Of a stretch of 64,000 nucleotides of DNA, positions 12,835 to 44,336 are shown piece by piece. Source of the DNA: Dehalococcoidia bacterium (GTDB lineage: Bacteria; Chloroflexota; Dehalococcoidia; UBA2979); NCBI GenBank assembly GCA_965262725.1, contig OZ253555.1, forward strand, positions 640,001 through 704,000. Reading direction: 5' to 3'. Below the pieces are notes generated by a model, which had not been told where the DNA came from, ran no database searches, and saw nothing but the letters and a program-made list of their open reading frames with translations. The position numbers and the translations under genes were made by a program. The stretch's first letter is position 1. Every line of letters starts with the position of its first letter.

Positions 12835-13036
12835 AGGCTACGCAGGAGGGGTCCACGGGAAGTCCAGCGCAGGTCCAAAATCGGTCCAAAAGGTCCAGCA
12901 CAGATCCAGAATCGGTCCAAATCCGCGTGCACGGTTCCTGGGCTCGGCCGTATTCCCGGCGATCGGCTCCGTCAGGAAACGGTAGCTTTTCACAGGTTTG
13001 CACGCCGTTTGGACCAAATCTGGACCGAAATTGCCC
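12835..13036. promoter_or_regulatory. Divergent phased direct-repeat arrays (core TGGAC) with TAGCCT -10 box
   Basis: GTCCA-type words at 12851, 12862, 12873, 12884, 12893, 12904 and 12915; opposite-facing TGCAC/TGGAC/TGGAC/TGCCC at 12999, 13010, 13021 and 13032. Confidence 0.7.
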
Positions 13037-13828
13037 ACGGATCATTGTGATCTGGTTCTTCAACGTGGTTGTTCGTGAACAGGTGAAGCCGGGCTGCCTC
13101 GTCGATTCCCTCGACCCACCAGTCAGGCTCGTCCTTCCGAGGATTCTCTTCACGAGCATGTCGTGGCCAGTCCGCTGTCGATACGAATCTACTGATGCTG
13201 CGATGGCAGTGACGATCGCACGCCAGCGGACATGAGCTGCCGCACCTCGGCGGGGTCGATCGTTTCGGCCCACGCGGATTCGGTGATGAAGACATCGTGG
13301 AACTCGGACCGTTTCACGGCGCCGGTCCATCCCGCCGGCACCAACTAGGCCGTCCCATGCACGATCGGCACCCGCAGGGAGGCCCCGCCCAGGACCGGCA
13401 GGTCGCCCCAGTCGAGGCTGACGGCGGCCTCTGCGGGGACCGCGCCGCCGCAGCCCGTGAAGGCGTGGGTCATCCGCTCCGCGCCGGGGAGCGCGGGACG
13501 GTGCCGGCCGGGTCGGGCTGAACCTCCGTCATTTCGTGGCGCGCGAGGCAGTCGTCGCTCTCACGCCACTCGAAGAGGTCGCCCGCCTCCAGCGAGTCGT
13601 AGTGGGCCGCCCGCGACACGCCGTCGGCGTCGGACGTATGGATGAGGAGCCCCGTGGGGTTCGGAGGTCGCTGGCATCTACGGGCGCTGGCGTCGGCCGT
13701 CGGGACCTCCGGGTTCGGGAAGGCGAAGCGCGACCGACGGCTGCCCCCATACCATGGCGAACGTCGGGTGATCGGCGCGGGCGGGGGCAAACACCGCCGG
13801 TCCCTGCGCGGAAGGCAGGCGGCCAAGC

Positions 13829-14512
13829 ATGGCGGGGACGGACAGCCGGGAACCCTTTCCCGAGCCGACTGCGCGCGACCTCGCGGAGGCGGTGGTTCGT
13901 ACGAGCCTTTCCCTCGTCGCGGTGGTCGGCGGGCCGGCAAACCGGGTTCTCGATCTCGCGATCGTTCCGGCGTACGAGCGGCGGCGGGCGGACTGGTTCC
14001 GTCGGCTAGACGATCGCCTGAAGTGCCTCGAACAGGCGGTGGAGGGACTCACCGTTGAATCGCTGAGAGACGATGATGACTTCATCAGCGCGGTGACCAC
14101 CGCAACCCTGATCGGGCTCCGCACCCACGACGAGGAGAAGCTCGCGGCGCTTCAGAATGCCGTGGTCAACGTGGCGCTGGGCCGCGAATCCGCCCCGAAC
14201 CTGCAGTCCGTGTTTCTCAGCCTCGTGGACTACCTGACCCCGCTGCACATGCGATTGCTGCGCTTCTTCCAGGACCCGCGAGTGTTTGGCGAGACCCCGG
14301 GAAGACTGTCATCCGGGCTCACCACGCGCGACATCGTGCTGGCTGCCTTGCCGGACATACCCCCGACCGCCTACGACCTGCTCTCCGGGGACCTCGAGAG
14401 CCGAGGCCTGATCGCCCGTCCGAAGACTCCCGGGATTGGCCTCACTAGCGAGCAAACGACCGAGCTCGGGGCCAGGTTCCTGCGTTTCATCAGCGAGCAG
14501 CAGCCGGGCTAG
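13829..14512 (+). CDS. Hypothetical protein (weakly Abi-alpha-like)
   Basis: 227-aa ORF with globular composition; family is a guess. Confidence 0.65.
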   Translation: MAGTDSREPFPEPTARDLAEAVVRTSLSLVAVVGGPANRVLDLAIVPAYERRRADWFRRLDDRLKCLEQAVEGLTVESLRDDDDFISAVTTATLIGLRTHDEEKLAALQNAVVNVALGRESAPNLQSVFLSLVDYLTPLHMRLLRFFQDPRVFGETPGRLSSGLTTRDIVLAALPDIPPTAYDLLSGDLESRGLIARPKTPGIGLTSEQTTELGARFLRFISEQQPG

Positions 14513-14762
14513 GCACATCGCGGGTTGCGGTGCCCGGAGCGACGTCGCTGGCGAGCGGCCCACGCGAGAGCAGATCGAGATCCCGGACGCGACGCCCGCG
14601 ATCGTGGGTACCGCTCTCTGAGAGCGGGTTCAGGAGATCCTGGATGACCCGGCGCGAGCGGATCGCAGACCCGTCGCGCAGCGGCACTACACGCTGAGCG
14701 GCCGTCCTCGGCGAGGCGGGAGATCCACGCCCGCAGCTCCGCCGTCTCTCGGTCGTCGGCGC

Positions 14763-15269
14763 GTGAGCGGTGAGCGCGGCGCTCTCCCGGCTGCGGGCCA
14801 CGGGGCTGGACGTGGCGGAGGTCGACGGCGCCACGCTGTGGCTCCCCCCCGGGGTGACCGTGGATGCGTGGGAACTGGAGGAGCTGGCTGTCGGCGTCGC
14901 CGCGCATTCGGTGTCCCCCGCGAGCATTTCGAGCGCCTTGCACGCGCGTTCCTGCCCGGCTGGGACGATCCCTGGGTGAGGGTCGAGCGCGAGCGGCTGC
15001 GCGATCTCGCCCTGGAGGCGCTGGAGGCGGACGTGCGTCGGGCGGCGGCGAGCGGCGATAGGGATCGCGCACTGACTGCCGCCTACGCGGCGGTGCGTAT
15101 CGCTCCGCTCCGCGACAGCAGCGTCGGCGTGCTGATCCAGATCCTTCTCTCGCGGGGAAGCCCCGCCGTGGCGCTGCGGACCTACCATGGCTTCTATCGG
15201 CGCCTCAAGGCCATCGGGAGCGCGGCCCTCGGAGGCGACGCGAGCGCTGGTCGCGCCGATGCTGGGTAG
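14763..15269 (+). pseudogene. Frameshifted SARP/BTAD-domain regulator fragment
   Basis: SAALSRLR...VDAWEL in one frame; LPGWDDPWVRVERERLR...APLRDS in another. Confidence 0.6.
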
Positions 15270-15419
15270 CGCCCTCTGGCGGATGATCGAGGGCCGGTCG
15301 CCCTCGCGGTAGCGAGCGGCACCGACGAGGGGCCGAGCACGATCTGGGTCCGCGTGGCGGTGCCGGCAGCGCAGCGGCTCGGGCCAAGTCACGTACTGGA
15401 CGCTTGACGAGTGAGAGCC

Positions 15420-15503
15420 GTGCACCCTGTGCACCCATGCACTAGGGAATACAGGATGTGTACACCACACGTACTCCTAGGGAGCAGGATGCACAGGGTG
15501 CAC
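15420..15503. repeat. TGCAC iteron-like repeats (8-9 bp period) forming a 16-bp inverted repeat
   Basis: GTGCACCCTGTGCACC (15420-15435) versus GATGCACAGGGTGCAC (15488-15503). Confidence 0.7.
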
Positions 15504-15543
15504 GAGGGAGACGGGCGGGACGCGAGGAGGAGGGACGGCGAGC

Positions 15544-15810
15544 ATGGAGACAGAGGCCGCGGGACTGGTCACGTTTTCGCTGATGAGCAGGCAGGGCGGC
15601 GATCGGTGGCATTTGATCTGCGCCCGTTGCGGCCGCGGTCGGGTGCGCTCGGCCGTCGAGGTGTCGTGGCGTCGCGTGCGGCTGCTGCCAGCGCTCGGGG
15701 AGGTCTGGCAGGTGGACGGGAGTGATGCCGCGCTAGCGGCCGCCGTCGAGCACGAGCGGGAGCACGCCGCGGAAGGGGGCGCGCCTGATGGAGAAGGAAC
15801 ACGGCCATGA
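15544..15810 (+). CDS. Hypothetical phage/satellite protein (CxxC)
   Basis: ATG after a purine-rich tract; ATGA overlap with the next ORF. Confidence 0.5.
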   Translation: METEAAGLVTFSLMSRQGGDRWHLICARCGRGRVRSAVEVSWRRVRLLPALGEVWQVDGSDAALAAAVEHEREHAAEGGAPDGEGTRP

Positions 15811-16223
15811 CCAAGGCGGGGCCGATCGTGGTTCTCAAGGTCGAGATCCACGACTCGACGGGGCGCGAGGCATCGAGGCCGGGCGCGTTCATGGTGCGGC
15901 CTGACGAGGCCGAGAGAGCCGGGCTGGTGGTCGGCGTGACGCCGCATATGCACTTGGTCTTGCGTGGCCGGTCGCCGCTGGCGGTCGCCGTGTTCGAGCC
16001 CGACGCCGCGGAGCGGGCCGCCGCCCTGTCCATCGCCGCCATCCCGGGCGTGTTCGCAGACGGGAGGGTGACATCCGGCGGCCTCCCGCTGGTCGAGGTG
16101 GATGGCACGCGCTGGCACTGTGCCTCGGCTGAGGCGGACGCGGCGCGCGTCGTGCTGAGGCGTGAGCTTGGCCCTCGGTGGCGCTGGCCGTGTGAGATCG
16201 TGAAGGGGCTCGCCGCCGACTGA
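15807..16223 (+). CDS. Hypothetical phage/satellite protein
   Basis: 138-aa ORF coupled to the upstream ORF; GAAGGA RBS. Confidence 0.55.
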   Translation: MTKAGPIVVLKVEIHDSTGREASRPGAFMVRPDEAERAGLVVGVTPHMHLVLRGRSPLAVAVFEPDAAERAAALSIAAIPGVFADGRVTSGGLPLVEVDGTRWHCASAEADAARVVLRRELGPRWRWPCEIVKGLAAD

Positions 16224-16334
16224 TAGCGGAGGCGCTCGCGGGGGCGTAAGCCCTATCCCGCGCCTGATGGCACCGCCGGGCGCGCTTGGGGTGCCTAGGG
16301 GCGAAGCGGGGGTCTTCCTGCCACACACAGGACC

Positions 16335-16443
16335 GATCGCGGCCGAGGTGGCTACCTACCTCGAGGGGCTCACCATCCGGGGCGGCGACCTCGACGGCGA
16401 GCCGTTCCGGGTGCTCCCGTGGGAGCGCCGATTCCTGCGGGAG
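16335..16443 (+). pseudogene. N-terminal fragment of a phage terminase large subunit
   Basis: YLEGLTIRGGDLDGEPFRVLPWERRFLR resembles terminase N-termini; cut off by the convergent gene. Confidence 0.55.
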
Positions 16444-19102: not shown

Positions 19103-19115
19103 GCTCCAAGCCGGC

Positions 19116-19190
19116 CTAGCCAAACAGCACCGCCGCGACCTTCTCGCTCGCTTCGCGCTGCATGTCGGGCAGCACGTGGGAGTAGAGGTC
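19116..19190 (-). pseudogene. 3' tail of a tyrosine integrase (second, shorter copy at 18181-18209)
   Basis: Encodes DLYSHVLPDMQREASEKVAAVLFG*, which includes the catalytic Tyr motif. Confidence 0.7.
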
Positions 19191-21679: not shown

Positions 21680-21745
21680 TGAGCAGATCCTGAGCGACGT
21701 GTGAGCGAATCCTGAGCACCCCTGATCGCAGAATGGCCCTGCATC
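21680..21745 (+). promoter_or_regulatory. Phased direct-repeat array (core TGAGC)
   Basis: TGAGC at 21680, 21691, 21702 and 21713; downstream sequence homologous to 22666-22800. Confidence 0.6.
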
Positions 21746-21965
21746 GCCGCACGGCGCCACCCGAGCGAGCGTGCGGAGACGCGGAAGGGGCTCGCCGTGC
21801 GGTGCGCACTCCTCGCCGTCTTCACAGCGCTCGCTTGCCGGCGCCGCCGCCGGGGCCGGGTAGCCAGAGCACTCACCCGCATGTCCAGACTCGCAAGTCC
21901 TCCTGCCACCCCCCTCGCGGAGGTGCGCCCGGCGCACGACGCACTGGAGGACGGGGCAAACGCCG

Positions 21966-22420
21966 GTGCCTGAAGGGGCCGTCTTGCTGACGGTGCACGA
22001 GGCGGCTGCGCCGCTGCGGATCTCCCGCAACCTCGCCTACGAAGTCGTGGCGAGGGGCGAGCTCCCGGCGATTCGCCTCGGCCGCGTCATCCGCGTCCCG
22101 CGCGCGGCGCTTGAGTACGACCGCGGAACGATGCATGCCACGGACTACCGGGCGAAGCTCGCTGGCTACCACCGGTACTACGACTCCCGCCAGTTCGAGG
22201 ATGACTTCGGCGAGCCGCCCGTCTTGCTGGTGGTGGCTCAGGGCGACCGGGCCGAGGAGCACGTTGCGCGGGCGGCTCGCCTCGCTGCCCGCGTGTGCGG
22301 GTCCAGGCTTCCGTTGATCTTGACCGCCGAGTGGCGGTTCGCACGCGATCCGTCCAACGCCCGTGGACTGCCCGGGCCATCTGGCGGACGGTCGATGGAC
22401 CGGAGCCCCGCCGGCCATGG
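21966..22420 (+). pseudogene. Chimera of an HTH_17 excisionase and a replication-relaxation family C-terminal fragment
   Basis: LLTVHEAAAPLRISRNLAYEVVARGELPAIRLGR joined in frame to LEYDRGTM...YRAKLAGY. Confidence 0.6.
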
Positions 22421-22486
22421 CCGGACAGGACGCGCGCTGTGGAGCGCCGCGGTGGGAGCGGGACTCCGACTGAAGGAGGTGAACGA

Positions 22487-22580
22487 TGAGCGACGATCAG
22501 CCGTTGGCGGCGACCGAGGCTGCAAGAGTTGCTGCGCATCTCGCGCAACCTTGCCTCCGAGTTGGTAGCGCGAGGGGCCG
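22487..22580 (+). pseudogene. Degenerate excisionase copy
   Basis: AAGGAGG RBS; frameshifted ...LRISRNLASELVARG. Confidence 0.55.
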
Positions 22581-22582
22581 TC

Positions 22583-22681
22583 GGGAAAGTTAGGAAGGAT
22601 TCCGGAACGATTCTGGAACGTCTAGAACTCTTGTAGAACGCAGCCGGAACTTCCTGTGAACGCTCGATCGCAGGCTAGCCT
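22583..22681 (+). promoter_or_regulatory. Phased direct-repeat array (core GAAC) with TAGCCT -10 box
   Basis: GAA(C) at 22585, 22594, 22605, 22616, 22625, 22636, 22647 and 22658; TAGCCT at 22676. Confidence 0.7.
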
Positions 22682-22884
22682 TGCATCGTCGCACCACGCC
22701 CATCGAGGCGAGCGCGCATGGATGCGGAAGGGGCTTGGCCGTGCGGGATCCGTTGCTCGCCGTCGCCGCTGCGCTCGTCTTGCCGGCTGCTGCCTGCCGC
22801 GCCCGCCCGCGCCAGGCGGCCGATCCACTCGCGGCTCTCGCCCGCCCGCCTCCGGCGTGCGCGCACGCGGCACGGGGTTGCACC

Positions 22885-23110
22885 CGCTCCTCCTCGAGTA
22901 CGGCCGCGGAACCCTCGACTCGGGCGACTACCGCGCGAAGTTCGAGGGGTACCGCCGGTACGACGCCGCACGGAAGTGGGAAGACCACCTCCCGCGTCCG
23001 CCTACGTTGCGGCGAGCAACGCGCGGGGCACGGCGTCCGGCGAGCTGCACACGGGTGGGCCGGGCACGCCGGGGCGCTCACGACCACGGTATCGCGGATC
23101 GACCCCGGGG
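22885..23110 (+). pseudogene. Second replication-relaxation family C-terminal fragment
   Basis: LLEYGRGTLDSGDYRAKFEGYRRY, paralogous to 22110-22200. Confidence 0.5.
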
Positions 23111-23298
23111 ACGGCACACGCGTGGCCCGGCGGTGCCGTCTGGCGGCCGATTCACGGCCGCCGCCGGTCAGGCGAGGGGAGGATGGCCTGGATGATCACA
23201 CGAGGATTGCTGAAGCCGGGCCGGCTCCGGCCGCGGTCCAGCGACACGCAACTGCGTGGTCTGGCGCAGCGCGCGAGGCCGCCCACGAGGGGTGACCA

Positions 23299-23523
23299 GT
23301 GAATGACGACCCACTGCTGCTGACGGTCCCCGAGACCGCGAGGCTGCTTCGAATCTCGCGCAACCTCGCCTATGAACTGGTGGCGCGGGGGGAGCTGCCT
23401 TCCGTCCGGTTCGGCAGGGTGATTCGAATACCCCGGAGGGTGCTCACCGACTGGGTCCGGGAGTCGGTCGGCCGGCGCGACACGGGTGCGCGCGCGGAGA
23501 ACGAAACATCGGAGAGCCGCTGA
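23299..23523 (+). CDS. Excisionase / HTH_17 DNA-binding protein
   Basis: LLTVPETARLLRISRNLAYELVARGELPSVRFGRVIRIPR; adjacent to the integrase. Confidence 0.9.
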   Translation: MNDDPLLLTVPETARLLRISRNLAYELVARGELPSVRFGRVIRIPRRVLTDWVRESVGRRDTGARAENETSESR

Positions 23524-23616
23524 CAGAACGCCTGTTCTGCTAGAATGAATTCGGCTGTGCGCTTCACGCCGTCGGCACGGCGCGGGCATCGTGGAGCGCG
23601 GCAGAGGAGGCAGCCC

Positions 23617-24774
23617 ATGGGCAAGCGTGACTACGGTAGCGGTGCCCTCAGGAAGCGCGGGAAGGGCTGGCAGGCCACGCTCTGGCTCCCGCGTGATCCG
23701 GTCACCGGCAGGCGCACGCGCAAGACGTTCACGGCTGCGACGAGGAAGGAGGCTGTGGGGCTGCGCAGCGCATTCCAGCGTCGGCTCGAGCACGGCCTGG
23801 ACGTGGTGGGAGCAGAGTCACCACTCGGCGACTACTTCGAGCGCTGGTTGCGCGAGCACGCGGCCCGATCCGTTTCGGCACGGACACTGTCCGTCTACCG
23901 GCAGACCGGTCGTGTGTTCGTGGCTCCGATTGCCTCGGTGCGCTTGTCGGACGTCCGCCCGCCGCACATCGAGAGAGCGCTCGATGCGTACCTGCGGTCC
24001 GGTGCGGGCAACCGCACCGCCGCCAAGCACCTGACCGTCCTGAAGTCGGCGCTCGCCCGGGCGGTGAGGCTGGAGTTGATCTCGCGCAACCCGGCGGACG
24101 CGGTGACGAAGCCGCGCGCAACCCGCCGCGAGATGCGCGTGGCCGACATGGAGACACTTGCCGCCATCCTGGGCGCCTGCGCGGATCCCGATTTCAGGCG
24201 CCTGATCAATCTTGCCGTCCACACGGGCCTCCGGGCCGGGGAACTGCTCGGCCTGAGGTGGGCCGATGTCTCCTGGGAGCACTCGCTGCTGCAGGTGAAG
24301 CGCTCCCGCAACCTGTTCGCCGAATCCGGGTTTGCCGAGCCGAAGACGGCCGCGGGTCGCAGGGCGATCGCGCTCTCTGAGCGGGAGATAGCGCTTCTTC
24401 GCGAACATCGCTCTGCCCAGGCTGAGAGACGCCTCTCGCTCGGGCCGGCATGGCCGGGCACTGACCTCGTGTTTCCCCGCGCGGATGGGAAGCCGGAGAA
24501 CGTCGAGCGTCTCGCCCGGCAGTGGCGCGAACTCTGTCGCCGTGCCGGCGTGTCGGGACTGCGATTCCACGATCTCCGCCACACGAGTGCGACGATCGCC
24601 CTCACCAGCGGCGTCCACCCGAAGGTGGTTCAGGAGCGTCTGGGGCACTCGACCATCAGCGTCACGCTGGACACGTATTCCCACGTCCTCCCGTCCATGC
24701 AGGAAGACGCGGCGCACCGGATCGAGGAGGCGATGTCCGTCCTCGACGGCCGGGATCGCGTTCGAACGAATTGA
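23617..24774 (+). CDS. Tyrosine recombinase/integrase (ICE/phage type), intact
   Basis: GAGGAGG RBS; TGLRAGE, PKT, FHDLRH, LGHS and DTYSHV catalytic motifs. Confidence 0.95.
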   Translation: MGKRDYGSGALRKRGKGWQATLWLPRDPVTGRRTRKTFTAATRKEAVGLRSAFQRRLEHGLDVVGAESPLGDYFERWLREHAARSVSARTLSVYRQTGRVFVAPIASVRLSDVRPPHIERALDAYLRSGAGNRTAAKHLTVLKSALARAVRLELISRNPADAVTKPRATRREMRVADMETLAAILGACADPDFRRLINLAVHTGLRAGELLGLRWADVSWEHSLLQVKRSRNLFAESGFAEPKTAAGRRAIALSEREIALLREHRSAQAERRLSLGPAWPGTDLVFPRADGKPENVERLARQWRELCRRAGVSGLRFHDLRHTSATIALTSGVHPKVVQERLGHSTISVTLDTYSHVLPSMQEDAAHRIEEAMSVLDGRDRVRTN

Positions 24775-27860: not shown

Positions 27861-27962
27861 CCACTAAGGCAAGCTTCGCCGAGCGCTTCCCAAGTCCAGC
27901 TGTCCTCGGCAACTCGCCACCACGATGGTAGCGCACTTGGCGCGCGGCACGATCGCGCCGAT

Positions 27963-28188
27963 TCGCTGTCTCGCCGCCTTCCTTGCCGCTCGTCTACCTC
28001 CTCTGCCGTTGCTCGTCCACGAGTTGCCCTGTCTGCTCGATTCGACGCCTGTAGCGGAGGGCGCTGCTCGTTGCCTCTGGTGAGGGTGATCCGTTCCGGT
28101 GTTTCGGATGAGCGATCCATGCCGGATTCTCTGCTCCCTGGAGTCAGCGGTACCGACGGAACGCACTGCTGACGAAGGGCAGGCTACG
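27963..28188 (-). ncRNA. Diverged 5' half of the putative leader RNA (copy B) with TAGCCT -10 box
   Basis: Alignable to 12618-12842 and 43640-43865, with many substitutions falling in loops. Confidence 0.5.
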
Positions 28189-28199: not shown

Positions 28200-28889
28200 C
28201 TATCCCCACGCCTTGCTACGGGCCCATTCGTCGACAGCTGCCTTCGACGCCTGCAGTCGTGCCGTGTCGCCTCCGAACATCCCGGCTGCCAGCGGCAACC
28301 AAGCGTGGCCGTCACGTTTCACTTCAACAGCGACGACAACCGGGAGCCATTCGGACGACCAGGGCCCGCGACGCCATGCGAAGCGGCCCCCCGAGAAGCG
28401 CGCCGACTCTCCAGAGGTCAACCACCAATCGGCCTCCGCGAGAGACAGCACGTACTCGAACCTGTCGAACAGGTCCGTGTATTCCTCGTCCGAGGGGATG
28501 ATCTCGCTGAAGGACTCGCGGAGCGCTCCGTGCAGTTCATCGCTCAGGGGAGTGCGCCCGCCCTTCCCGGCTCCCCGCAACTCCTGAGCGACGCGGTCGT
28601 CGACCACGCTGCGGGGCGAGAGTGCCTGAAGGATGGGGCCGCGTTCGTTGTCGGTGCGCACTTCGAGGGAGAGAGAGGTGCTGAGCCCGGAGTAGTTCTC
28701 GCGAGCGACCATCGCGATTCCGGCCGCATATAGCGCCAGGAGTGCCGGATAGCGCACCAGTTCGAGGAACACGGTTTGCCCCGAGCGACCGTGAGGTGCC
28801 TCGGCCAGGCGGCGCAGCAAGACAGTGAGCTCTCGCCCGTGCGCTTCTTCCTCGCCCCAGTACGCAGCGCCAGCGACGAGATGCATCAC
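28200..28889 (-). CDS. Hypothetical protein, probably the C-terminal part of a larger (SIR2/caspase-fused type) protein
   Basis: YPALLALYAAGIA, TPLSDELH and FDRFEY segments; family is inference. Confidence 0.55.
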   Translation of the reverse strand: MMHLVAGAAYWGEEEAHGRELTVLLRRLAEAPHGRSGQTVFLELVRYPALLALYAAGIAMVARENYSGLSTSLSLEVRTDNERGPILQALSPRSVVDDRVAQELRGAGKGGRTPLSDELHGALRESFSEIIPSDEEYTDLFDRFEYVLSLAEADWWLTSGESARFSGGRFAWRRGPWSSEWLPVVVAVEVKRDGHAWLPLAAGMFGGDTARLQASKAAVDEWARSKAWG

Positions 28890-28938: not shown

Positions 28939-29280
28939 CTACCGCTGCGGGCGCTGCCGCCTGGCGCGCTTCGGAGTCGGGCACGGCGCCGCAGGGGAGA
29001 CGTCGACCGCGGCCGAGTCCTCGTTGAGCGTGCGGCGCCGAACGATGAGGCCGCTGCTGGTCACGAGGACGCCTAGGTCGCCGCCCGCGTCGCGGATCGC
29101 CTTCATTGCCGCTTCGCGCGTGATGGCGATCGCGACGTAGGAGCCCGGCCGCAAATCCCACGCGAGCCACACGTGCATCTTCCGACGATTCTGGATCGCC
29201 CGAATCGCGGCCCTCACCAACTCGCGGGAGGTCGGCTGCGGGGCCGCGTCGTCAACCACGCTCCGATCCGGCGTCGTCAC
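28939..29280 (-). CDS. Hypothetical protein
   Basis: 113-aa ORF with AGGA upstream; lies downstream of the promoter at 29423. Confidence 0.45.
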   Translation of the reverse strand: MTTPDRSVVDDAAPQPTSRELVRAAIRAIQNRRKMHVWLAWDLRPGSYVAIAITREAAMKAIRDAGGDLGVLVTSSGLIVRRRTLNEDSAAVDVSPAAPCPTPKRARRQRPQR

Positions 29281-29407: not shown

Positions 29408-29613
29408 GTGCTGACGGGGGACAGGCTACGAGCGGACATTCGCATGGCGTTCCCACTGTTCTCACAGGATCCCCACCGTTTCCCATTCGCCGCGAATCCC
29501 CCCGCCCGGACCCAGGGGGCAACTCGACGCGAACTGCGAGCAGCGCCCCAGTAGCGTACTTCGGCCGATTCCGTGGGACTCTCGTGGAACGCTCAGGGAA
29601 CAAATCGGGGATC
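29408..29613. promoter_or_regulatory. Divergent phased repeat arrays (core GGGAA/GGAAC) with TAGCCT -10 box and the first bases of the leader RNA
   Basis: TGCTGACGGGGGACAGGCTACG identical to 12820-12842; TTCCCA-like words at 11/9/11/10 spacing; four opposite-facing words at 29575, 29586, 29597 and 29608. Confidence 0.55.
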
Positions 29614-36530: not shown

Positions 36531-37395
36531 GGGTAGCCTTGGTACCCGGTGGCTGCGAAGGTGCGGCGATCTGGAGTAGGGACAGGCGGGCCATCCCCCG
36601 CTGTCCAACACGGGAGCGATTCACGCCGCGACGCCGCGACGCGGGCCCGCTCCGCCGGGCTCGCGACCGGGCGGCGCGGGGATCACGCCGGCGGTCGCCG
36701 TTCTGCGTGATCGCTTAAGCCGTGCGTAGACTGCACGCGCGAGCGGGCGGAGCGTGAGGCGGGACTGACCGACGGGTCCGGGGGCGACTGGCGGCGCGAG
36801 GCGAAAGCCCCCTCGCGACGCGCCCCACCCACCACGACCGGATCGTGAGAGAGCGTGGCGATGGCGACCGCTCATGGGATCGCGCCCGGGGAGCTGCGGG
36901 AGTGAATGGCATGCCGCGAGCTCACGGTGGGAGGCCGGCGGCGCCGCTCGACGTGGGGGTGATAACGCCGCCTCGCCGGCGAACGGGCACTGCGCGCCCG
37001 GCGTGCCTGCCGCCGGCGCTGCAGGCGGCAGGTGCCGACGGCTGCGCGCCCGCGCCGGCGGAGGGCCGGTCCACCGACGGCCCCGCCACGGCCGCCCGGC
37101 GCGGCCCGCCCGCGAGCCCTGAGCCGTGGCCCTCGACTCGCCGGGGTCCCCGGGAGGGAGAGGGAGCGGCCTGGATCCCCGAGGGCGACCTGACGGCGGA
37201 CGGCGGCGGGGGTGGGCGGGCTCGCCGGGCACCAGGCCCGGGAGCGGCTCCAGCGCCGTGCCGCTCTCGTCGAGCTGCCCGTCCAGGAGCCCGCGAGCGT
37301 CCCGTCGCCCGGTCGTGCGTGGCCCCGATGGCGGCGCGGCGTGCGGGATCCGGCCGCGGAGCCGGGCCCGCGGTGGCGCCCTCGCCGGAGACCCG

Positions 37396-38330
37396 ATGAG
37401 CGAGGCCGGCGAGACCTGGTGGGTCTACGAGGACGATATCGCCGCGCACGCGCGCGTCCACAAGGCGAGCTGCTGGCACTGCAACAACGGCCGCGGCCAC
37501 AGCCGTCTTCCCAGCAACCGCTGGCATGGCCCGTACGCGAGCGAAGCGGAGGCGCTCCGTCTCGCCGTGCGCCTCTGGCCGGACGACGCCCGCGTGTGCA
37601 ACCGGTGTGCGGGTCGCGGCACGGCGACCGCGGCCGAGGCGCGCACGCCGGCCACGTGGACGGCCTACGGCTCCGCCTGGCGCCGCTTCAGCGCCTGGTG
37701 CGAGGAGCGGGGAGCCCAGGCGCTGCCGGCCACCTCCGAGGACGTCGGCAGCTACCTGCTCGAGCGCATCGCCCAGGGCCGCACGCCCTCGACCGTCAAC
37801 GTCGACGCCGGTGCGATCTCCGCGCAGCACCGCGACGCCGGACTCCCCGATCCGACGCGGGCGGAGAGCGTGCTCCGCCTGGTCGGCGAGCAGCGGAGCC
37901 GGCGGCGCGGCGCGGCGCGGCGCGGCGACCCGCTCACGGCCGCCCGACTCGACCAGGTGCTTCAGGCGATCCCCGACACGGCGATCGGCCGGCGCGACCG
38001 CGCGCTGCTGCTGGTGATGCGCGACTGCCGGCTGCGGCCGTTCGAAGCCGCGGCGCTGAGGTGGAGGGACGTCGCGGCCGGCGGCGTGGCGATCGCGGTG
38101 CGCCTCACCCAGGTCCGCGGGAGCGTCACGGTCGACCTGTGGCTGATCAGCGAGCGAGCGCGCCAGGCGCTCGCCGCCCTCCTCCCGGACGCGGAGCGCG
38201 ATCCCGAGCAGCACGTCTTCCTGGTGGTCACCGCCCCGCGGCGCGGTCAGCCGCTGAGCGGGGACACCGTCAGCGACATCGTCCGGCGCCGCGTGAAGGC
38301 CGCCGGGATCGAGGGGAGACACCCCATGTC
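37396..38330 (+). pseudogene. Cre-like tyrosine recombinase with N-terminal His/Cys domain; 3'-truncated
   Basis: TWTAYGSAWRRFSAWC, AISAQH and RDRALLLVMRDCRLR; lacks HxxR and the catalytic Tyr. Confidence 0.75.
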
Positions 38331-38647
38331 CGTAACGCGCAAGGGGCGCCCCCACCCGGGCAGCGAATCGGGGTGTCGGGTGCGCGATGCGCAAGGAGAT
38401 CGTGAGCAGTCGGAGCGCCGTGTTAGAGCCGTGCGCGCGGCGGTGTTCCGAGGTCGACGCCGCCGCAGAGAATGGTCTTGGCCGGCGTGAGATGGGTGTC
38501 GGCTTCTGCGGACATGCGGTGGCTGGCCGACCGCTGCCGGTCGCCCGTGACGCGGGGTGCGCAGGTACTCGCCTCGCCGAGTTGCGCCCTCAACGAGCTC
38601 CAGACCCTGGATGAGTCGCGGCCCGCCGAGGCGCTCCGCGACCTCCG

Positions 38648-39874
38648 TCAGGCGGCGAGCTCAGCGTCCTCGGTGCCCAGGCCGCCCCAGGCAGTCTCCT
38701 CGTCGTAGAGCCGGCGCTTGTGCAGGCAGCCGTGCAGGAACGCGACCAGGCGGTTGGCGAGGGCGCGCAGCGCCTGGTTGTGCCCGTCGCCGAGCGCCCG
38801 CCGCTGCTGGTAGTACGCCCGGCACCCGGGACTCGCCTGGAGCGAGCAGAACGCCCACATGTGTATCGCGTCGTAGAGGCGCCGGTTCCGCACGTGGCGC
38901 GCGGTGACCGCCCGCTTCCGCCCCGATGATATGGTGAGCGGCGACGTGCCCGCGTAGTTCCTGCGGGACTTCGCGGACACGAAGCGTTCGGGGTCATCCC
39001 CGAACTCGCCCAGCACCCGGGCGCCGAGCACGGGCCCCAGGCCCGGCATCGACAGGTAAATCGCGGCGTCCGGGTGCTCCTCAAGAGACGCGGCCAGCTT
39101 CGACTCCAGTACCTCGAGTTGCCGGTTGATCTCCTGGAGCTGGGCAACCTGGGCGAGCACGCTGTCGGCGAACGCCTCGCTGAGCGCGGGCGCGACCGGG
39201 AGCGTGCGGAGCCGGAGTACCTCGCGTATCTCTTCCGCCCGCGTGTCCAGGTTGCGCTTGCGGCCTCCGCGCCTGAGCGCCGCGCGGAGCTGCGTCCGCG
39301 TCAGCTTCGCCGCCGCGAGCGGCTCCGGGGCGACGGCCAGCACCGAGAGCGCATCGGGATGCGTGAGGTCGGGGAAGGCCTGGAGTGCGGCCGGGAAGTA
39401 CTGCAGCAGCGCGCTGCGCAGCCGGTTGCTCTCGCGGGTGCGATTCCAGACCAGCTGCTGCTGGGCGCGGGCGCGCACCTGCACGGCGGAGGCGAGGGCG
39501 CTGTCGCCCGCGACCGGCCGGTGGTTGTGGCTGTCGGTGCGAACGAGGTTCGCGAGCATGCGCGCATCGCCCCGGTCCGACTTCCCGCCGCCGACCTGGT
39601 GTCGCTCGCGGTAGAGGGCCGCCACCCGCGGATTGATGGCGTAGACCCGGTAGCCCGCGCCGATGAGCGCTGCGACCCACGGGCCGCGGTCGGTCTCGAT
39701 GCCGACCACGACCTGGCCGGCCTCCTGTGCATGCTCGGCGAGCAGCGCATGGAGCGCGGTCATGCCCTCCGCTCCCTCGGGGAGTCGCTTCGCCGCGAGG
39801 CTCTCGCCCTCCTCGTTCATGACATGGACATCGTGATGGTCCTCGGCCCAGTCGTCGCCCACGTACACCGTCAA
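38648..39874 (-). CDS. IS110 family transposase/recombinase (element 2)
   Basis: VGDDWAEDHHD, GIET, KSDRGDA, SMPGLG and YAGTSP.T.SSG motifs. Confidence 0.95.
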   Translation of the reverse strand: MTVYVGDDWAEDHHDVHVMNEEGESLAAKRLPEGAEGMTALHALLAEHAQEAGQVVVGIETDRGPWVAALIGAGYRVYAINPRVAALYRERHQVGGGKSDRGDARMLANLVRTDSHNHRPVAGDSALASAVQVRARAQQQLVWNRTRESNRLRSALLQYFPAALQAFPDLTHPDALSVLAVAPEPLAAAKLTRTQLRAALRRGGRKRNLDTRAEEIREVLRLRTLPVAPALSEAFADSVLAQVAQLQEINRQLEVLESKLAASLEEHPDAAIYLSMPGLGPVLGARVLGEFGDDPERFVSAKSRRNYAGTSPLTISSGRKRAVTARHVRNRRLYDAIHMWAFCSLQASPGCRAYYQQRRALGDGHNQALRALANRLVAFLHGCLHKRRLYDEETAWGGLGTEDAELAA

Positions 39875-39884
39875 CCCGTGCTCC

Positions 39885-40110
39885 CTTCCTGCTCGACCCT
39901 GCTGGCTAAACCCACGGGCCTGCTCCGCAACGAGCTAATGGCACGGTGCTCTACAGGCACGACACCCCATCAGTGCATCGCAGGCCCGGACGAACCAGCC
40001 GGGGCACGGTCTACCTGTGGAGGTCGCAAGCGCCTCAGCGTTGGTCAGTGCTCTCCGACTGGCGGGTCCGGAACCATCCTCCCAGATCGCTCTGGTCCTC
40101 TGGTTCGGCT
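39885..40110 (-). ncRNA. Bridge RNA of IS110 element 2
   Basis: CCAUUAG guide matches the left junction CT-AATGG; stem-enclosed target loop. Confidence 0.65.
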
Positions 40111-40116
40111 CCCATT

Positions 40117-40247
40117 AGCGGAGGATCTCTCCGTCCTCGGTGATGCGCTCCGACACGAGTGCCGGGTCGAGCGGATGTGCCAGCTGCTCAAGCGCGGCCC
40201 GGCTCAGGCGGCGCGATCGCGTCGCCCTGCGTCTGACTTCAGCCATG
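40117..40247 (-). pseudogene. Rad52/Rad22-like annealing protein N-terminus, interrupted by IS110 element 2
   Basis: LAHPLDPALVSER...GEILR, cut at the IS core. Confidence 0.6.
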
Positions 40248-41292
40248 ATTCCTTCTCTCTTGCGTGTGCCTCGTGGAGCGAACGCAGGAACGCCGCGCGT
40301 CCGTCGCGGCGCCGTCCCAGTTCGCTGAGGTCGTGCGCCCCACCGGGGAGCGGCACGACGGTCGCCCGCTCCGCGAGCGCGGAGATGAGGCGGTCGGCGG
40401 CCTGACGGCCGGGGTGGTCGGCGTCGAGCGCGAGGTAGACGCGCCCGAGCGAGCGGAGGGCTGAGAGCGCCTCCCGCGAGACGTGGGTGCCGAGCAGCGC
40501 GACGGCCGGCAGCCGCCACGCGCAGAGGGTCAGCCAGTCGAAGGGACCCTCGGTCACGACGGCGGCCGCGGCCCCGGCCCGGCGTACCTGCTCCAGGCCG
40601 AGCAGCGGCGACGGCAGGCGCAGGTTGAGGTAGCGAGGCTCCCGGCCGTCGAGCGACCGCGCGGTGAGCCAGGTCGCCAGGCCCCGGGCGTCCAGGTCCG
40701 GGACGACGATCCGCCCGGCGAGCGCGTCGCGATCGCCGCTCAGGAGCCCGAGCCCCCGGGCCGTGTCGAGCCCGAGCCTCGAGCGCTCCAGGTGACGGGC
40801 GAGCCCGCCGCCCGCGAAGCCGACGCGCAGCCCGGAAGCCACGCCCTCGTCGATACCGCGGCCGCGGACGTACGAGCGGGCCTCGCGGCTGCGCCCGTAC
40901 TGCCCGGCGTAGAGGGAGGCGGCGGCCTCGATGACCGCCGCCTCGTCCGCGGCCACCGCCCGGACCGCTCGCCGAAGCGGGGATCGCGGCGCGGCGGCGG
41001 GCGCCGGGTGACCCCCAGCGGCGCTTCCTGCGAGCAGGGCGGCCGTCTCCCGGAACCCGATTCCCTGCAGGCGGCCGACGAAGTCGAAGACGTCGCCGCC
41101 CGCGTCGCAGCCGAAGCAGAAATAGCTGCCCGACTCCTCGTAGACCACGAGGCTCGGGGTGCGGTCCTCGTGGAACGGGCAGAGCCCGACGAGGCGGCGG
41201 CCCGAGCGCCGGAGCTCCACTCCGGCGCCCGAGACCGCGTGCGCGATCGGGTGTTGAGCCCGGATCGCCTCGATGTCGTAGAGCTCAGCCAC
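40204..41292 (-). CDS. DnaG-like primase (CHC2 zinc finger + Toprim)
   Basis: CPFHEDRTPS, CFGC, YLN, TEGPFD and LALDADHPG motifs. Confidence 0.92.
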   Translation of the reverse strand: MAELYDIEAIRAQHPIAHAVSGAGVELRRSGRRLVGLCPFHEDRTPSLVVYEESGSYFCFGCDAGGDVFDFVGRLQGIGFRETAALLAGSAAGGHPAPAAAPRSPLRRAVRAVAADEAAVIEAAASLYAGQYGRSREARSYVRGRGIDEGVASGLRVGFAGGGLARHLERSRLGLDTARGLGLLSGDRDALAGRIVVPDLDARGLATWLTARSLDGREPRYLNLRLPSPLLGLEQVRRAGAAAAVVTEGPFDWLTLCAWRLPAVALLGTHVSREALSALRSLGRVYLALDADHPGRQAADRLISALAERATVVPLPGGAHDLSELGRRRDGRAAFLRSLHEAHAREKESWLKSDAGRRDRAA

Positions 41293-41587
41293 CGCGGGTG
41301 AGCTCGAGCAGGCGCCGCCGGAAGCAGGCCTCCTCGAGCGTGAGCCTCGCGCCGGCGCCCCATCCGCCCGGCAGGTGCCGCCCGAGCAGCACCCCCGGCG
41401 GGTCACCGGACTCCCAGTAGCGGAGATGAAGCTCCGCCTCGCTGTCGCACTCGCCCAGCCGGGCGAGCAGTGCCGAGACGGCGGGCTTCGCCGCCTCGCG
41501 TCGCTCCTCGGGCCACCCGAGGTACTGCTCGTAGCTGCGTTCCCAGACGGCTCGCACCGCCTGCCGGAAGCGATTCTCCCTCTGCAT
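41285..41587 (-). CDS. Hypothetical protein of the replication operon
   Basis: AAGGAG RBS; overlaps the primase start. Confidence 0.7.
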   Translation of the reverse strand: MQRENRFRQAVRAVWERSYEQYLGWPEERREAAKPAVSALLARLGECDSEAELHLRYWESGDPPGVLLGRHLPGGWGAGARLTLEEACFRRRLLELTRGG

Positions 41588-41738
41588 GTCGCACTCCTTC
41601 CTCGGACACTCGCTGGACACCAGCCGATCGCTTCGCGCCCGCGGGCGGACGCATCTCGCCCACGCATGGACACGACGACATCGGGGCCGCCCGAAGGCGG
41701 CCCCGAAGATGACGGCGGTGCCGGTGGCTACGAGGGGG

Positions 41739-42725
41739 TCAGGCGAGCGGGCGTGCACCCCGGAGCGCCTGCGGGGCGAAGCGTCGGCCGCGCTCCCATC
41801 GCCTGAGGCCGAGCGCCGAGACGACCTCCCAGCCGCCGTCCGCAGTGGGGATCAGCACGGCCCCCCGGCCGAAGCCGGCGCGGTAGTGGATCGCCGCCAG
41901 GAGGTCGAGACGGCGGCAGGCGGTGAGCCAGCAGCCGTAGAGGTGGCGTGCCAGCTCGTCCGGCAGCCCGTCCAGCTCGGCGGATTCGAGCAGCTCGATC
42001 GCCCGGGCCGGCTCGCGCCGGTACAGGCGCCGCGCCTCGCGGAGCGCCGCCTCCGCGGCCCTCGTCTTGACGTCCTGTTCGCGCCGCCGTAGCGTTACGA
42101 ACGTACGTTCGAGGTCCGGCACGCTGCTGATTGTCTTTCCTACGGATGACAGCAGCCGCCGGGCCTCACCAATCCTTCCGCCGTCCAGGTGGTCCCCGGC
42201 CAGCTCCAGCTCATCCCGCATCCGCGCCTCCTCTTCCTGCGCCTGCTCCTCCGCCAGCAGTCGGGCGATGTCCTCACGCCCGGCGAGCGTCGCAGCCTCT
42301 CGTTCCAGCACGGCGGCGTGCGCCTCGGCCTGGTTCACGAGCCGCTGAGCCGCCCCCGCCACGCCCTCCGCCCGCTGCCCGGCGGCGGGCTCGAAGGCCG
42401 ACCGCGCGAGTGCGCCGGCACGGCCCGCGGCCTCGCCCAGCTCCGAGGCGACCCCCCGCAGCCGTGCGGCCTCGCTCCGGAGCGCCCTGAGGCGGCCGAG
42501 ACCCTGCTCCGCCTCCCGGCGGCGCTCGCCGTCACGGGCGAGCAGCACCTGCAGCTCGTCGAGCGCCCGCCGCGCCGCCCGCGTGAGCGCCTCGATCTCC
42601 TCCGGTCCGCTGCGCCGGATCACGGGCACGAGCGCCCGCGTCCCGGGGACCGGCCCCGCCTCGGCGAACAACCCGCGGACTCCTGCCAGCTCACCCAGAC
42701 TCGTCAGCACGATTTCCTGCGTCAC
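41739..42725 (-). CDS. Hypothetical coiled-coil protein
   Basis: 328-aa ORF; GTGA overlap with the upstream gene. Confidence 0.7.
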   Translation of the reverse strand: MTQEIVLTSLGELAGVRGLFAEAGPVPGTRALVPVIRRSGPEEIEALTRAARRALDELQVLLARDGERRREAEQGLGRLRALRSEAARLRGVASELGEAAGRAGALARSAFEPAAGQRAEGVAGAAQRLVNQAEAHAAVLEREAATLAGREDIARLLAEEQAQEEEARMRDELELAGDHLDGGRIGEARRLLSSVGKTISSVPDLERTFVTLRRREQDVKTRAAEAALREARRLYRREPARAIELLESAELDGLPDELARHLYGCWLTACRRLDLLAAIHYRAGFGRGAVLIPTADGGWEVVSALGLRRWERGRRFAPQALRGARPLA

Positions 42726-43345
42726 CTTCCATCACTCCTTCCCGCCGCTGCGGCGAATCCGCCGTTGCGGCCCTCGAACGCCTCCAGGGGCGATGCTTCC
42801 TTCTCGAACGGGCCCACCCACGGGGTCGGTTCCGCCGGTGCCGGCTCCGGCGCCGGCTCCTGCTCGGGCCGAACCCGCTCCGGCTCCCGCGGCATGCTCA
42901 CGGGCGTTCCGAGCTGTGGGGCCACGACGCGCTGGAGCTGCTGCCTGAGGGTCGCCAGCAGCTCCTCGTCGTCCACGTCCCGGCCTGATGCCGTCAGCGC
43001 GAGGAAGAGCACGTGCCGCCTGTGGCCCTCTGCGTCCTCGAACACCTGCAGCAGCGACTCCAGCGGACGCTCCTCGAGCGTGACCGTGCGCTGCACCACC
43101 ACGAGCAGGTGCCCGGGCGGTGCCACGCCGAGTCCGCGGAGGTGATCCCGCGTCACGCGTGTGATCGCACGCCTGAGGCGTCGCCCCTGTCTTCCGTCCA
43201 CGTCCGCCTCGACCGTCGGGCGCCACGGCCGCCTGCGTGCGGCACACGCGCTCCGCATCGCCGTGAACCGCCGGCCGCACCCGTTCCGCATGCGGGCCAC
43301 CGGCCCCGCGGCCCGGCCCCTCCGGCCCTTCTTCCTGCCTGCCAT
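42722..43345 (-). CDS. Hypothetical protein, first gene of the operon (start 43345 or 43201)
   Basis: AAGGAG RBS before ATG 43345; in-frame GTG at 43201. Confidence 0.6.
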   Translation of the reverse strand: MAGRKKGRRGRAAGPVARMRNGCGRRFTAMRSACAARRRPWRPTVEADVDGRQGRRLRRAITRVTRDHLRGLGVAPPGHLLVVVQRTVTLEERPLESLLQVFEDAEGHRRHVLFLALTASGRDVDDEELLATLRQQLQRVVAPQLGTPVSMPREPERVRPEQEPAPEPAPAEPTPWVGPFEKEASPLEAFEGRNGGFAAAAGRSDGR

Positions 43346-43427
43346 CCGACTCTCTCCTTCTGCTGCTCCGTCCCGGCTCATCGCGGCGGGACGGCCCTTA
43401 ACTCGATCGCCGAGTCCTCCCCGGCAC

Positions 43428-43462
43428 AGAAAAGCCCCGTGGCACGGGAGCCGTACGGGGCT
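43428..43462 (-). terminator. Terminator-like hairpin at the 3' end of leader RNA copy C
   Basis: AGCCCCGT...ACGGGGCT followed by TTTCT on the minus strand. Confidence 0.55.
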
Positions 43463-43464
43463 GC

Positions 43465-43851
43465 TTCGCCGCCGACACCCGACCCGCGGCACGCGCGGGG
43501 CGATGCCGCAGCTCGCCTCTGCGAGGCCTCGGGTCTCAGTCGTCGCTCGTGGTCGCCTCTATGCGAACCGGGGCCGGTCCGCTTCATTCGTCTTCCTCGG
43601 TGGTCCTCCTCCGTCTGTCGAACCTCTCGGTCCGCCACGTCGCTGTCTCGCTGCCTTCCCTGCTGCTCGTGCACCTCCTCTACCGTCGTTCGTCTCTGGG
43701 TTGCCCTGTCTGCTCGATTCGATGCCTGCCGCGGAGAGCGCTGCTCGTTGCCTCGGGTGAGGGTGATCCGTGCCTGCGTCCCGGATGAGCGATCCGTGCC
43801 GGTTTCTCTTCTCCCTGGAGTTGGCGGTACCGGCGAAACGCACTGCTGACG
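43465..43851 (-). ncRNA. Putative ~390-nt structured leader RNA, copy C (native context)
   Basis: Lies between the TAGCCT box (43858-43863) and the primase operon; near-identical to copy A. Confidence 0.6.
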
Positions 43852-43857
43852 AGGGGA

Positions 43858-44336
43858 AGGCTACGCCCAGACGTTCACAGAAAGTTCCGGCTGCGTTCCA
43901 TGAGAGTTCCAAACGTTCCGGATTTCTTCCGGATTTGTTCCTTTTCCGCCGTGCGGGGCCGATTGGCGCCGCCAGCCCCGTCCCGGAGGGCGCCGCGACT
44001 CCCGGGCTGCGGGAATGACCCGGAACGATGGGCACGGTGGCAGCCGCACGGCCGTGGACGCGGCTCGACCCCGGTCCAGGCTGGTCGCACGAGCGATCAG
44101 CCGCGTGCCGACGGTCCGCTACCTCAGCAGCGCATGGATTGAATCTGGCCACGCGACCGTCGGAACCTCTCCCGGGGCCCCTGCCTGTGGCCCACGCCGT
44201 CCGGTCAGGGCCGTGCGGACCCGCTTGGGCGCCCGCGCACGGGCCGGCCGCGGGCCGGCGGCTTCGCCCGGGCAGGCGACTCCGCCTTCGGGTCGCAGGA
44301 ACGCCCTGTGAACAAATCCGGAACAAATTAGGAGCG
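43858..44336. promoter_or_regulatory. Divergent phased direct-repeat arrays (core GAAC) with TAGCCT -10 box
   Basis: GTTC-type words at 43873, 43884, 43895, 43906, 43915, 43926 and 43937; opposite-facing GAAC/GAGC at 44299, 44310, 44321 and 44332. Confidence 0.7.

Follow-up and report, generated by a model that had tools for sequence, protein, structure and literature searches.

Phased, putative operator arrays with lineage-specific words in integrative and conjugative elements of Dehalococcoidia, and a candidate for their reader

The DNA described here is a stretch of 64,000 nucleotides from a Dehalococcoidia bacterium (positions 640001-704000 of contig C1 of the genome that we call G000; hereafter the window). 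G000 is a single contig of 3.67 Mb with 70.6% G+C, full of insertion sequences (IS) and integrative and conjugative elements (ICEs). Several promoters in the window are preceded by arrays of short direct repeats, here called words, and these promoters are of two types (Table 1). T1 promoters stand before a leader and an operon that begins with three open reading frames (ORF1 to ORF3) and a DnaG-like primase gene; T2 promoters stand before a gene for a TrbL/VirB6-like protein. An earlier interpretation of this DNA, made from its letters alone (the sequence-only reading), had assigned the same spacing of 11-11-11-9-11-11 bp to arrays A and C of two T1 copies and to the seven-word array of a T2-type remnant, and we could confirm it. 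On the + strand, the TCCA words of array A start at 12852, 12863, 12874, 12885, 12894, 12905 and 12916, and the TTC(C/A) words of array C run from 43874 to 43938 with identical steps. The T2-type array has GAAG at 22594 and GAAC at 22605, 22616, 22625, 22636, 22647 and 22658, which is the same spacing toward the promoter. As a control for chance, a five-word pattern with 11-9-11-11 spacing and at most one mismatch was sought in the window and in 100 dinucleotide-preserving shuffles of it. The window contained two matches with GAAC and one with GGAC, none of them outside these three arrays; the shuffles contained none (0/100).

Table 1. Features of the window, with positions counted from its first nucleotide
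Feature	Position	Strand	Remarks
Array A, seven GGACC-class words (TGGACC) before a T1-type promoter	12851-12920	-	spacing 11-11-11-9-11-11
TAGCCT, -10-like hexamer of T1 copy A	12835-12840	-	9 nt past the proximal word
T1 leader remnant, copy A	12443-12834	-	95.5% identical to copy C; operon behind it lost
Distal inverted four-word array, copy A	12999-13036	+	TTGCAC, TTGGAC, CTGGAC, TTGCCC, then conserved CGGATC motif
Degenerate type B gene remnant (winged helix and BTAD)	14770-15270	+	upstream of copy A
T2-type promoter remnant	21680-21734	+	TGAGC x4, hexamer CAGAAT 21729-21734, then truncated TrbL start
HTH_17 and Replic_Relax remnant (relaxase fragment)	21966-22568	+	decayed ICE
T2-type promoter remnant	22594-22681	+	seven GGAAC-class words 22594-22661, CAGGCT 22671-22676, TAGCCT 22676-22681
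HTH_17 excisionase-like gene	23299-23523	+	
Tyrosine integrase	23545-24774	+	
Third T1 leader copy	27956-28188	-	85% identity, without array; TAGCCT retained at 28181-28186
T1-type promoter with degenerate GGAAC/GGGAA-like array	29423-29485	-	TAGCCT 29423-29428
Distal inverted four-word array of the 29423 promoter	29575-29612	+	
T1 operon	40204-43492	-	ORF1 42722-43492, ORF2 41739-42725, ORF3 41285-41758, DnaG-like primase 40204 to about 41290
T1 leader, copy C	43465-43857	-	with 5' hairpin
TAGCCT, -10-like hexamer of T1 copy C	43858-43863	-	
Array C, seven GGAAC-class words before the T1 promoter	43873-43941	-	spacing 11-11-11-9-11-11
Distal inverted four-word array, copy C	44299-44335	+	GGAAC, TGAAC, GGAAC, GGAGC, then GGATC and TATTTT
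Conserved small protein, 85 amino acids (aa)	45000-45257	+	divergent side of T1; no family match
Type A gene of this ICE copy	47339-50900	+	frameshift-split as assembled; winged helix at about 49955-50421
Second type A C-terminal remnant (winged helix and BTAD)	60400-61924	+	frameshifted

The word does differ between arrays A and C. When it is read in the register of the promoter hexamer, the difference is not TGGAC versus xGAAC, as had been proposed, but GGACC versus GGAAC, a single base. The DNA downstream of the two arrays is near-identical (95.5% over 404 nt), and from this it had been concluded that the word had changed in concert at about 11 sites. The arrays themselves match at 25 of 35 word positions and at 16 of 43 spacer positions, and the next 30 nt match at 25 positions. 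Since the spacers are so much less alike than the flank, replacement of a cassette fits better than eleven point changes. The pattern is better explained by a cassette swapped as a block for a diverged homologue, with selection acting on words and spacing.

Two further arrays had been noticed in the window. Four TGAGC words at 21680-21717 indeed follow one another at 11-11-11 spacing. The GGGAA-like array at 29438-29485 exists too, though in degenerate form, with CGAAT, GGAAC, TGAGA, TGGGG and GGGAA as in-phase words, and its promoter leads to two reading frames (28939-29280 and 28200-28889) for which no Pfam family was matched. Three loci also carry a distal, oppositely oriented four-word array with the word of its partner, as had been described, but just 2 to 3 of the 4 words are exact in each. 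Besides these window copies, the inverted array was seen in 8 of 10 homologous loci displayed. A conserved CGGAT(C) motif comes after it, and its distance upstream from T1 is roughly 80 to 360 bp; it might act in DNA looping or belong to a divergent promoter. The proposal of a divergent switch found no support in the homologous loci compared: the inverted array is conserved, but neither a conserved -10 hexamer nor a universally conserved divergent gene follows it.

Outside the window, a scan of G000 in which at least 6 of 7 tetramers had to be identical and exactly spaced returned 14 loci, and fuzzy searches with the promoter cores returned 7 sites of one type and 11 of the second. Homologues of the T1 leader occur in 8 of 61 related genomes when G000 is counted, and in 7 of 36 within its family. 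From seven genomes we assembled 33 arrays (16 T1, 17 T2), each anchored on a hexamer 9 nt past the last word. The words stand at -14, -25, -36, -47, -56, -67 and -78 relative to this hexamer, which has the form nAnnnT, so the conservation of spacing in homologous loci is borne out. Most arrays comprise 7 to 9 words. The 9-bp step, read by eye, is clear in 26 arrays and ambiguous in two; the five arrays that lack it have just 3 to 4 words each, spaced 11-11(-11). It occurs in all five word classes represented by at least five words. Because 11 + 11 + 11 + 9 equals 42 bp, or four turns of 10.5 bp, the short step looks like a phase correction that would hold all sites on one face of the DNA.

The distance of 9 nt between the proximal pentamer and the hexamer is constant at T1 and T2 and in all word classes. 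At T1 the hexamer is TAGCCT, which had been taken for the -10 box at arrays A and C and at the 22594 array. At T2 the equivalent position is occupied by CAnnCT, in which A and T are invariant. A TAGCCC/T motif lies 5 nt beyond CAnnCT and was considered as the T2 -10 box; it was rejected, since 3 to 4 variants lack its A and the upstream CAnnCT retains both A and T. On this comparison CAnnCT is the better candidate for the -10-like hexamer of the 22594 promoter and the other T2 promoters, and the geometry of word, 9 nt and nAnnnT is then common to both promoter types. A sigma-70-like -35/-10 pair was not found around copy C (43300-44700).

This fixed geometry bears on the question whether the arrays regulate transcription at all. 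They could be iterons for partition, replication or relaxosome assembly (a centromere, ori or origin of transfer, oriT) that merely lie near promoters. The parC site of plasmid R1 consists of 11-bp iterons flanking a promoter, and upstream of T1 an oriT-like site could be formed by the inverted distal array, the CGGAT(C) motif and an AT-rich stretch. Iterons would not explain why the distance between proximal word and hexamer is fixed at two unrelated operons in all word classes. Moreover, no par or rep gene is among the genes annotated beside the arrays (a search that was not exhaustive), and the relaxase follows the element backbone and not the word, as described below. We consider an iteron function highly improbable.

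About seven word classes can be counted among the 33 arrays. GGAAC is found in G000, G008 and G025; GGACC in array A of the window, at G000 37029 and 1078707, and in one ICE of G003; GGGAC/GGAGC in two other ICEs of G003; AGGAAG/AGAAC in G020; GTGACC at G000 2010816 and 2097857 and in G002; GAGCA, the TGAGC of the sequence-only reading, at 21680 of the window, near 1448k of G000 and in G002; and GGATT in G023. T1 and T2 of one ICE share their word class in all five ICEs of other genomes that could be compared (three of G003, one each of G025 and G020), and the same concordance holds for the GGAAC and GTGACC pairs of G000. Thus the claim that each lineage has its own operator word at conserved spacing can be extended to a pair of regulated promoters with the same word. 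This concordance is what a common trans-acting reader would require.

That the arrays belong to related mobile elements, as had been suggested, is supported by the genes behind them: the elements are copies and remnants of related ICEs with a type IV secretion system (T4SS) in Dehalococcoidia-class Chloroflexota. At the T2 locus L011 the gene order is TrbL/VirB6-like protein, T4SS pilin, VirB4-like ATPase, coupling protein, Replic_Relax relaxase, HTH_17 excisionase (Xis) and tyrosine integrase. The corresponding Pfam-type matches are TrbL, T4SS_pilin, TraG P-loop/AAA_10, TraG-D_C/TrwB, Replic_Relax, HTH_17 and Phage_integrase, so that integrase, relaxase, coupling protein and VirB4-type ATPase lie within one block. 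The T2 array before the TrbL/VirB6-like gene has up to 8 or 9 words, and at least five copies of a 12-kb T2 block are 91-96% identical. As a rule T1 and T2 point away from each other, with 18 to 90 kb of central DNA between them; in G020, as an exception, both read in the same direction on one contig. Because this divergent arrangement at 18 to 90 kb is otherwise constant, T1 and T2 are probably the two arms of one large ICE. Two T2 remnants, both decayed, follow one another at 21680-24774 of the window: one has TGAGC words, a TrbL stub and the relaxase fragment, the next GGAAC words, Xis and integrase.

T1 encodes ORF1 (256 aa), ORF2 (328 aa) and ORF3 (157 aa), followed by the primase with CHC2 and Toprim domains. 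Intact T1 copies continue past the primase with a Rad52-like protein, a 69-aa protein, ArdC and a 105-aa protein. The Rad52-like frame of 315 aa (L012:5191-6138 (-), G000 391191-392138) matches the RAD52 family model TIGR00607 with E 2.9e-20, below the curated cut-off, and may on this similarity be a single-strand annealing protein that lies between primase and ArdC. A search of the genome contigs with ORF2 returned 8 loci, most of them already known and two without a promoter. In copy C the operon is truncated at 40116 by an IS (38314-40119). A 41-bp sequence at 40079-40119 was considered as an attachment (att) site and discarded, being the end of this IS. The 1.8-kb IS has several copies in the genome, and its interior matches the RNA family Ms_AS-4 (RF02464) at 38969-39050.

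What, then, reads the words? Judged by sequence comparison, the best candidate is a large ICE-encoded protein that we call type A. Over its length of about 1150 to 1300 aa, hydrophobic segments at the N-terminus are followed by two LysM domains, an unassigned middle domain, a proline-rich linker and, at the C-terminus, a winged helix-turn-helix (wHTH) with BTAD. Hydropathy predicts the order transmembrane segment (TM), LysM, TM, middle domain, linker, wHTH, BTAD. The LysM match in Pfam has an E value of 3.3e-10. BTAD (PF03704) scores 25.9 bits in the G000 protein (cut-off 22.1) and 43.7 bits in that of G025, with a predicted local distance difference test score (pLDDT) above 90 in this part of the model. 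The wHTH can be aligned with EmbR (2fez) at E 2.1e-5. A Foldseek search with the C-terminus placed EmbR and AfsR as the top five matches; they are weak (E about 1e-3, TM-score 0.43) and were obtained with a low-confidence wHTH model. One type A gene lies in each of three ICE centres of G003 and in those of G025 and G000. Both type A copies of the window contain frameshifts, which may reflect decay or assembly error; intact copies occur elsewhere in G000.

The wHTH of type A groups by word class and not by genome. Domains of the same class are 71-75% identical across genomes, whereas those of different classes within one genome are 53% (G000) or 58-59% (G003) identical. The recognition helix reads RH[TM][IL]ANAVS[SG]LRG in the GGAAC class, [KR]H.LSN..TTLR[ST] in the GGACC class, RRLLGNAVSALRS in the GGGAC class, RHLISNAASGIR in the AGGAAG class and RHVMTNVASSLRT in the GTGACC class. 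To separate word from ancestry, we compared the proteins of the GGAAC ICE of G000 with those of the GGACC element G003c and of the GGAAC element of G025. Percent identities to G003c and G025, in this order, are 82 and 73 for ORF2, 85 and 75 for TrbL, 71 and 61 for the relaxase, and 63 and 46 for the small SARP-like protein B1. The order is reversed for type A, with 54 and 66 in the C-terminal domain and 45 and 65 in the middle domain. Type A alone, of the families compared, is more similar to the element with the same word, against the backbone; no other of these families tracks the word in the comparison of homologous loci that the sequence-only reading had called for. In addition, the two GGACC T2 arrays of G000 at 37029 and 1078707 lie about 30 to 170 bp behind a reading frame of GGACC-class type A.

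That reading had named two kinds of cognate regulator, BTAD/wHTH proteins and BldC/Xis-like proteins with HTH_17 domains. Of the first kind, type A is the best candidate. The second would polymerise head to tail on the arrays and so set the transfer switch. Xis, Cox and BldC proteins bind phased direct repeats, and HTH_17 genes are present in the window at 21966 and 23299 and in every ICE. However, the helix region of HTH_17 (ISRNLAYELVARGELP) is unchanged in elements beside GGAAC and GGACC arrays, and a GGACC-class and a GGAAC-class element share 97% identity in their xis-int DNA. Because these sequences do not vary with the word, HTH_17/Xis cannot explain word specificity and was rejected as the specificity reader; that it sets the switch from the arrays we regard as scarcely credible. 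The likeness to Xis, Cox and BldC filaments is one of phased direct repeats in the control region of a mobile element, and it ends at a protein that is not word-variable.

A closer competitor is found among the small proteins of about 250 aa with wHTH and BTAD (type B). They could read the words, and type A would then have another role. Many ICEs have type B genes, in several paralogues, at a distance of 1 to 4 kb upstream of T1, and such genes are near the T1 regulatory region in six contexts (copy A of G000, three ICEs of G003, G020 and G025). They have the classic architecture of a small SARP, with a BTAD score of 52 bits, and the 18-kb ICE centre of G025 contains just one type B and one type A gene. 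The two paralogues compared, B1 and B2, both go with the backbone and not with the word. Between GGAAC and GGGAC ICEs, B2 retains 86% and 78% identity and the same helix (PASAVARLH.AIARLRSAG). For B1 this is seen in the comparison above: its nearer counterpart is in the GGACC ICE of the same genus, not in the G025 element with GGAAC words, and its helix is nearly equal in GGAAC and GGACC elements yet differs within the GGAAC class. It is therefore unlikely that type B proteins read the words.

Another protein of the ICE might also be the reader: one of ORF1 to ORF3, the 85-aa or a 67-aa protein on the divergent side, or a protein of the central region. Such a reader could be a repressor that coats the promoter, like an immunity repressor. 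Searches of Pfam, PHROGs and NCBIfam gave no family for ORF1, ORF2, ORF3 or the small proteins, and the presence of two arrays that face opposite ways suggests looping, a device of many repressors. On the other hand, ORF2 follows the backbone, and the region upstream of T1 in G025 and G020 yielded neither the 85-aa nor the 67-aa protein. Promoters that have no -35 box and carry words in that position would rather suit an activator. We hold a reader of this kind to be rather improbable, though it deserves some weight.

The overall reading that we propose, and for which we see the case as evenly balanced, is that the words form lineage-specific operator arrays of T4SS-type ICEs, probably read by the winged helix of type A. 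Each ICE places one cassette of 7 to 9 direct five-base words before two operons, with the proximal word ending 9 nt before an nAnnnT -10-like hexamer and with no -35 box. T1 would be an operon for DNA establishment (leader, three genes of no known family, primase, Rad52-like protein, ArdC) and T2 the operon for transfer (VirB6/TrbL, pilin, VirB4, coupling protein, relaxase, Xis, integrase). Type A would recognise the words by the putative OmpR-type winged helix near its C-terminus, and its protomers would sit side by side on one face of the DNA. The two proximal protomers may replace the -35 contact and activate RNA polymerase, and the upstream words may add cooperative occupancy. By matching a word class with a recognition helix, co-resident ICE lineages would form regulatory-orthogonal specificity groups. 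We propose SARP-like class II activation because the array geometry is close to the published rule for SARP sites. By this rule (PMC10936776), a SARP site is made up of direct repeats with a period of 11 or 22 bp, the last (3') of which stands 8 bp from the -10 box, and the -35 box is poor. The present arrays are likewise direct repeats 11 bp apart on one DNA face with no good -35 box, and 26 of the 33 show the 11-11-11-9-11-11 pattern. As with AfsR and its afs box, ActII-ORF4, DnrI, PimR and EmbR (2fez), the candidate reader combines a putative OmpR-type wHTH with BTAD.

Several points weigh against type A as the reader. Its Trans_reg_C match (PF00486, 20.5 bits) is below the cut-off of 26.2, and AlphaFold models the wHTH with low confidence (pLDDT about 50-60) and is confident only in BTAD. 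Type A adjoins the T2 array, and its co-segregation with the word could be linkage rather than function. The discordance with the backbone comes from one triple (G000, G003c, G025) and the contrast within G000, hence from few independent lineages, and co-variation with the word was compared for only some ICE protein families. The concordance of T1 and T2 words partly reflects duplication or gene conversion, since the two arrays of one ICE are often near-copies (spacers 37/43 in the GGAAC ICE of G000 and 32/43 in G003). A metagenome contig, L065, combines a type A gene of the GGACC class with a T2-type array of seven CTGAGC words (L065:5259-5330 (-)), the two being convergent and 4.4 kb apart; this TGAGC array is probably an adjacent remnant, comparable to the tandem ones of the window, and proximity is no rule. 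The geometry is not exactly that of SARP boxes either. In the source cited above (PMC10936776), the 3' repeat is 8 bp from the -10 box, versus 9 nt here for the pentamer unit; the distance to the hexamer, a -10 box by its sequence, becomes 8 only if the word is extended by 1 nt on its 3' side. Known SARP boxes have 2 to 3 repeats and our arrays 7 to 9 with a 9-bp phase step. Finally, known SARP domains are N-terminal in soluble proteins, whereas that of type A (residues ~1046-1267 of 1275) is C-terminal in a protein of ~1200 aa, behind LysM and hydrophobic segments.

The system is akin to the SARP box and differs from it in repeat number, phase step, regulon, host phylum, regulator architecture and the presence of word and helix classes. 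SARP regulons are antibiotic clusters; the arrays stand before operons for ICE transfer and establishment in a Chloroflexota host and come, unlike known SARP systems, in several word classes with matching helices. ToxR, TcpP and CadC are membrane-anchored one-component regulators whose wHTH domains bind tandem direct repeats upstream of a promoter, as ToxR does at the heptad repeats of ctx. Their wHTH is N-terminal and their sensor periplasmic, in contrast to the C-terminal wHTH of type A. Phage immunity groups and plasmid iteron or incompatibility groups resemble the present case in that the circuit is kept while the operator and its cognate DNA-binding protein are swapped, so that lineages share a cell without cross-talk. 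Those groups use repressors or Rep initiators, whereas the candidate here would be an activator with a long phased array at two promoters.

A more far-reaching version of the proposal, which we offer only tentatively, treats the arrays as a swappable code. A membrane-anchored, peptidoglycan-binding SARP would sense an envelope or mating cue through LysM, form a filament on the lineage-specific array and co-activate transfer and establishment. The filament would consist of 7 to 9 phased winged helices, with the 9-bp step as phase corrector. Helix and word would co-diversify by cassette exchange into at least five orthogonal groups that do not cross-activate in one genome.

The timing of transfer has been worked out chiefly for conjugative elements of model Proteobacteria and Firmicutes. 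In the portions of the literature accessible to us, we found no description of such ICE regulation or of LysM-SARP proteins, and likewise none of the control of conjugation in Chloroflexota. The present system offers a compact, testable circuit in which one long phased operator cassette stands at two promoters. The natural word variants that differ by one base (GGAAC, GGACC), together with a helix that varies in step, provide a specificity series for OmpR/SARP winged helices. The proposal, if true, would carry SARP control beyond antibiotic clusters into horizontal gene transfer, and it suggests how co-resident ICE lineages remain regulatory-independent. If LysM and the membrane part are a sensor, cell-envelope signals would be linked to conjugation.

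Type A has relatives beyond these genomes. A search of metagenome contigs with its C-terminus returned one close locus and 24 distant ones (28-34% identity), and no phased array of at least 5 words was found in the available flanks of the distant loci. The combination of LysM and BTAD is present in databases under automatic names (about 47 clusters at ≥43% identity), and more distant forms occur in metagenome-assembled genomes of Actinomycetota. The ESM Atlas returned only matches below 0.9 for the middle domain, which are uninformative. Within G000, positions 1076679-1078538 hold a shortened type A-like gene (a frame of 619 aa) that has lost the LysM region. It sits between a GGAAC T2 array (1076108) and the GGACC T2 array at 1078707, a mosaic of two specificity groups. 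In the ICE centre of G025, a run of genes resembling a Tad/Flp pilus cluster (L030:12044-17926) lies between T1 and T2, just before type A. Judged by eye from the sequences, its products include a CpaE-like protein, an ATPase, membrane proteins, a Flp-like pilin of 61 aa and TadE-like proteins.

The T1 leader may carry a second layer of control. It is about 400 nt long and directly follows the array and TAGCCT. A hairpin near its 5' end (43604-43863, - strand, and homologues) pairs columns 24-36 of the alignment with columns 64-72, and two of its pairs show compensatory changes, from CG to UA in 4 sequences and from UA to CG in 3. Within the copy C leader, shortly before ORF1, a second, terminator-like hairpin with a T-run (43433-43452, - strand) hints at control by attenuation or antitermination. 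Because of these two structures, a post-initiation layer of control at the T1 leader is possible. A scan of the window at Rfam gathering thresholds gave no match to the leader; it found just a tRNA and the Ms_AS-4 match inside the IS.

Further repeats were observed apart from the arrays. More than 25 copies of an 865-bp element (among them G000 380699-381563), all 100% identical, point to a very recent IS burst. Positions 2889-4445 of the window contain at least 6 copies of a coding repeat of ~92-108 nt that ends in ...VCWG, by eye an RCC1-like repeat protein. About 17 copies of an 18-bp unit form a tandem array at 57686-58111. A 219-bp tandem duplication with 100% identical copies (54817-55452 and 58944-59165) gives rise to three consecutive small reading frames of 64-73 aa with very high G+C at third codon positions, and a fourth related copy lies at 58925-59224.

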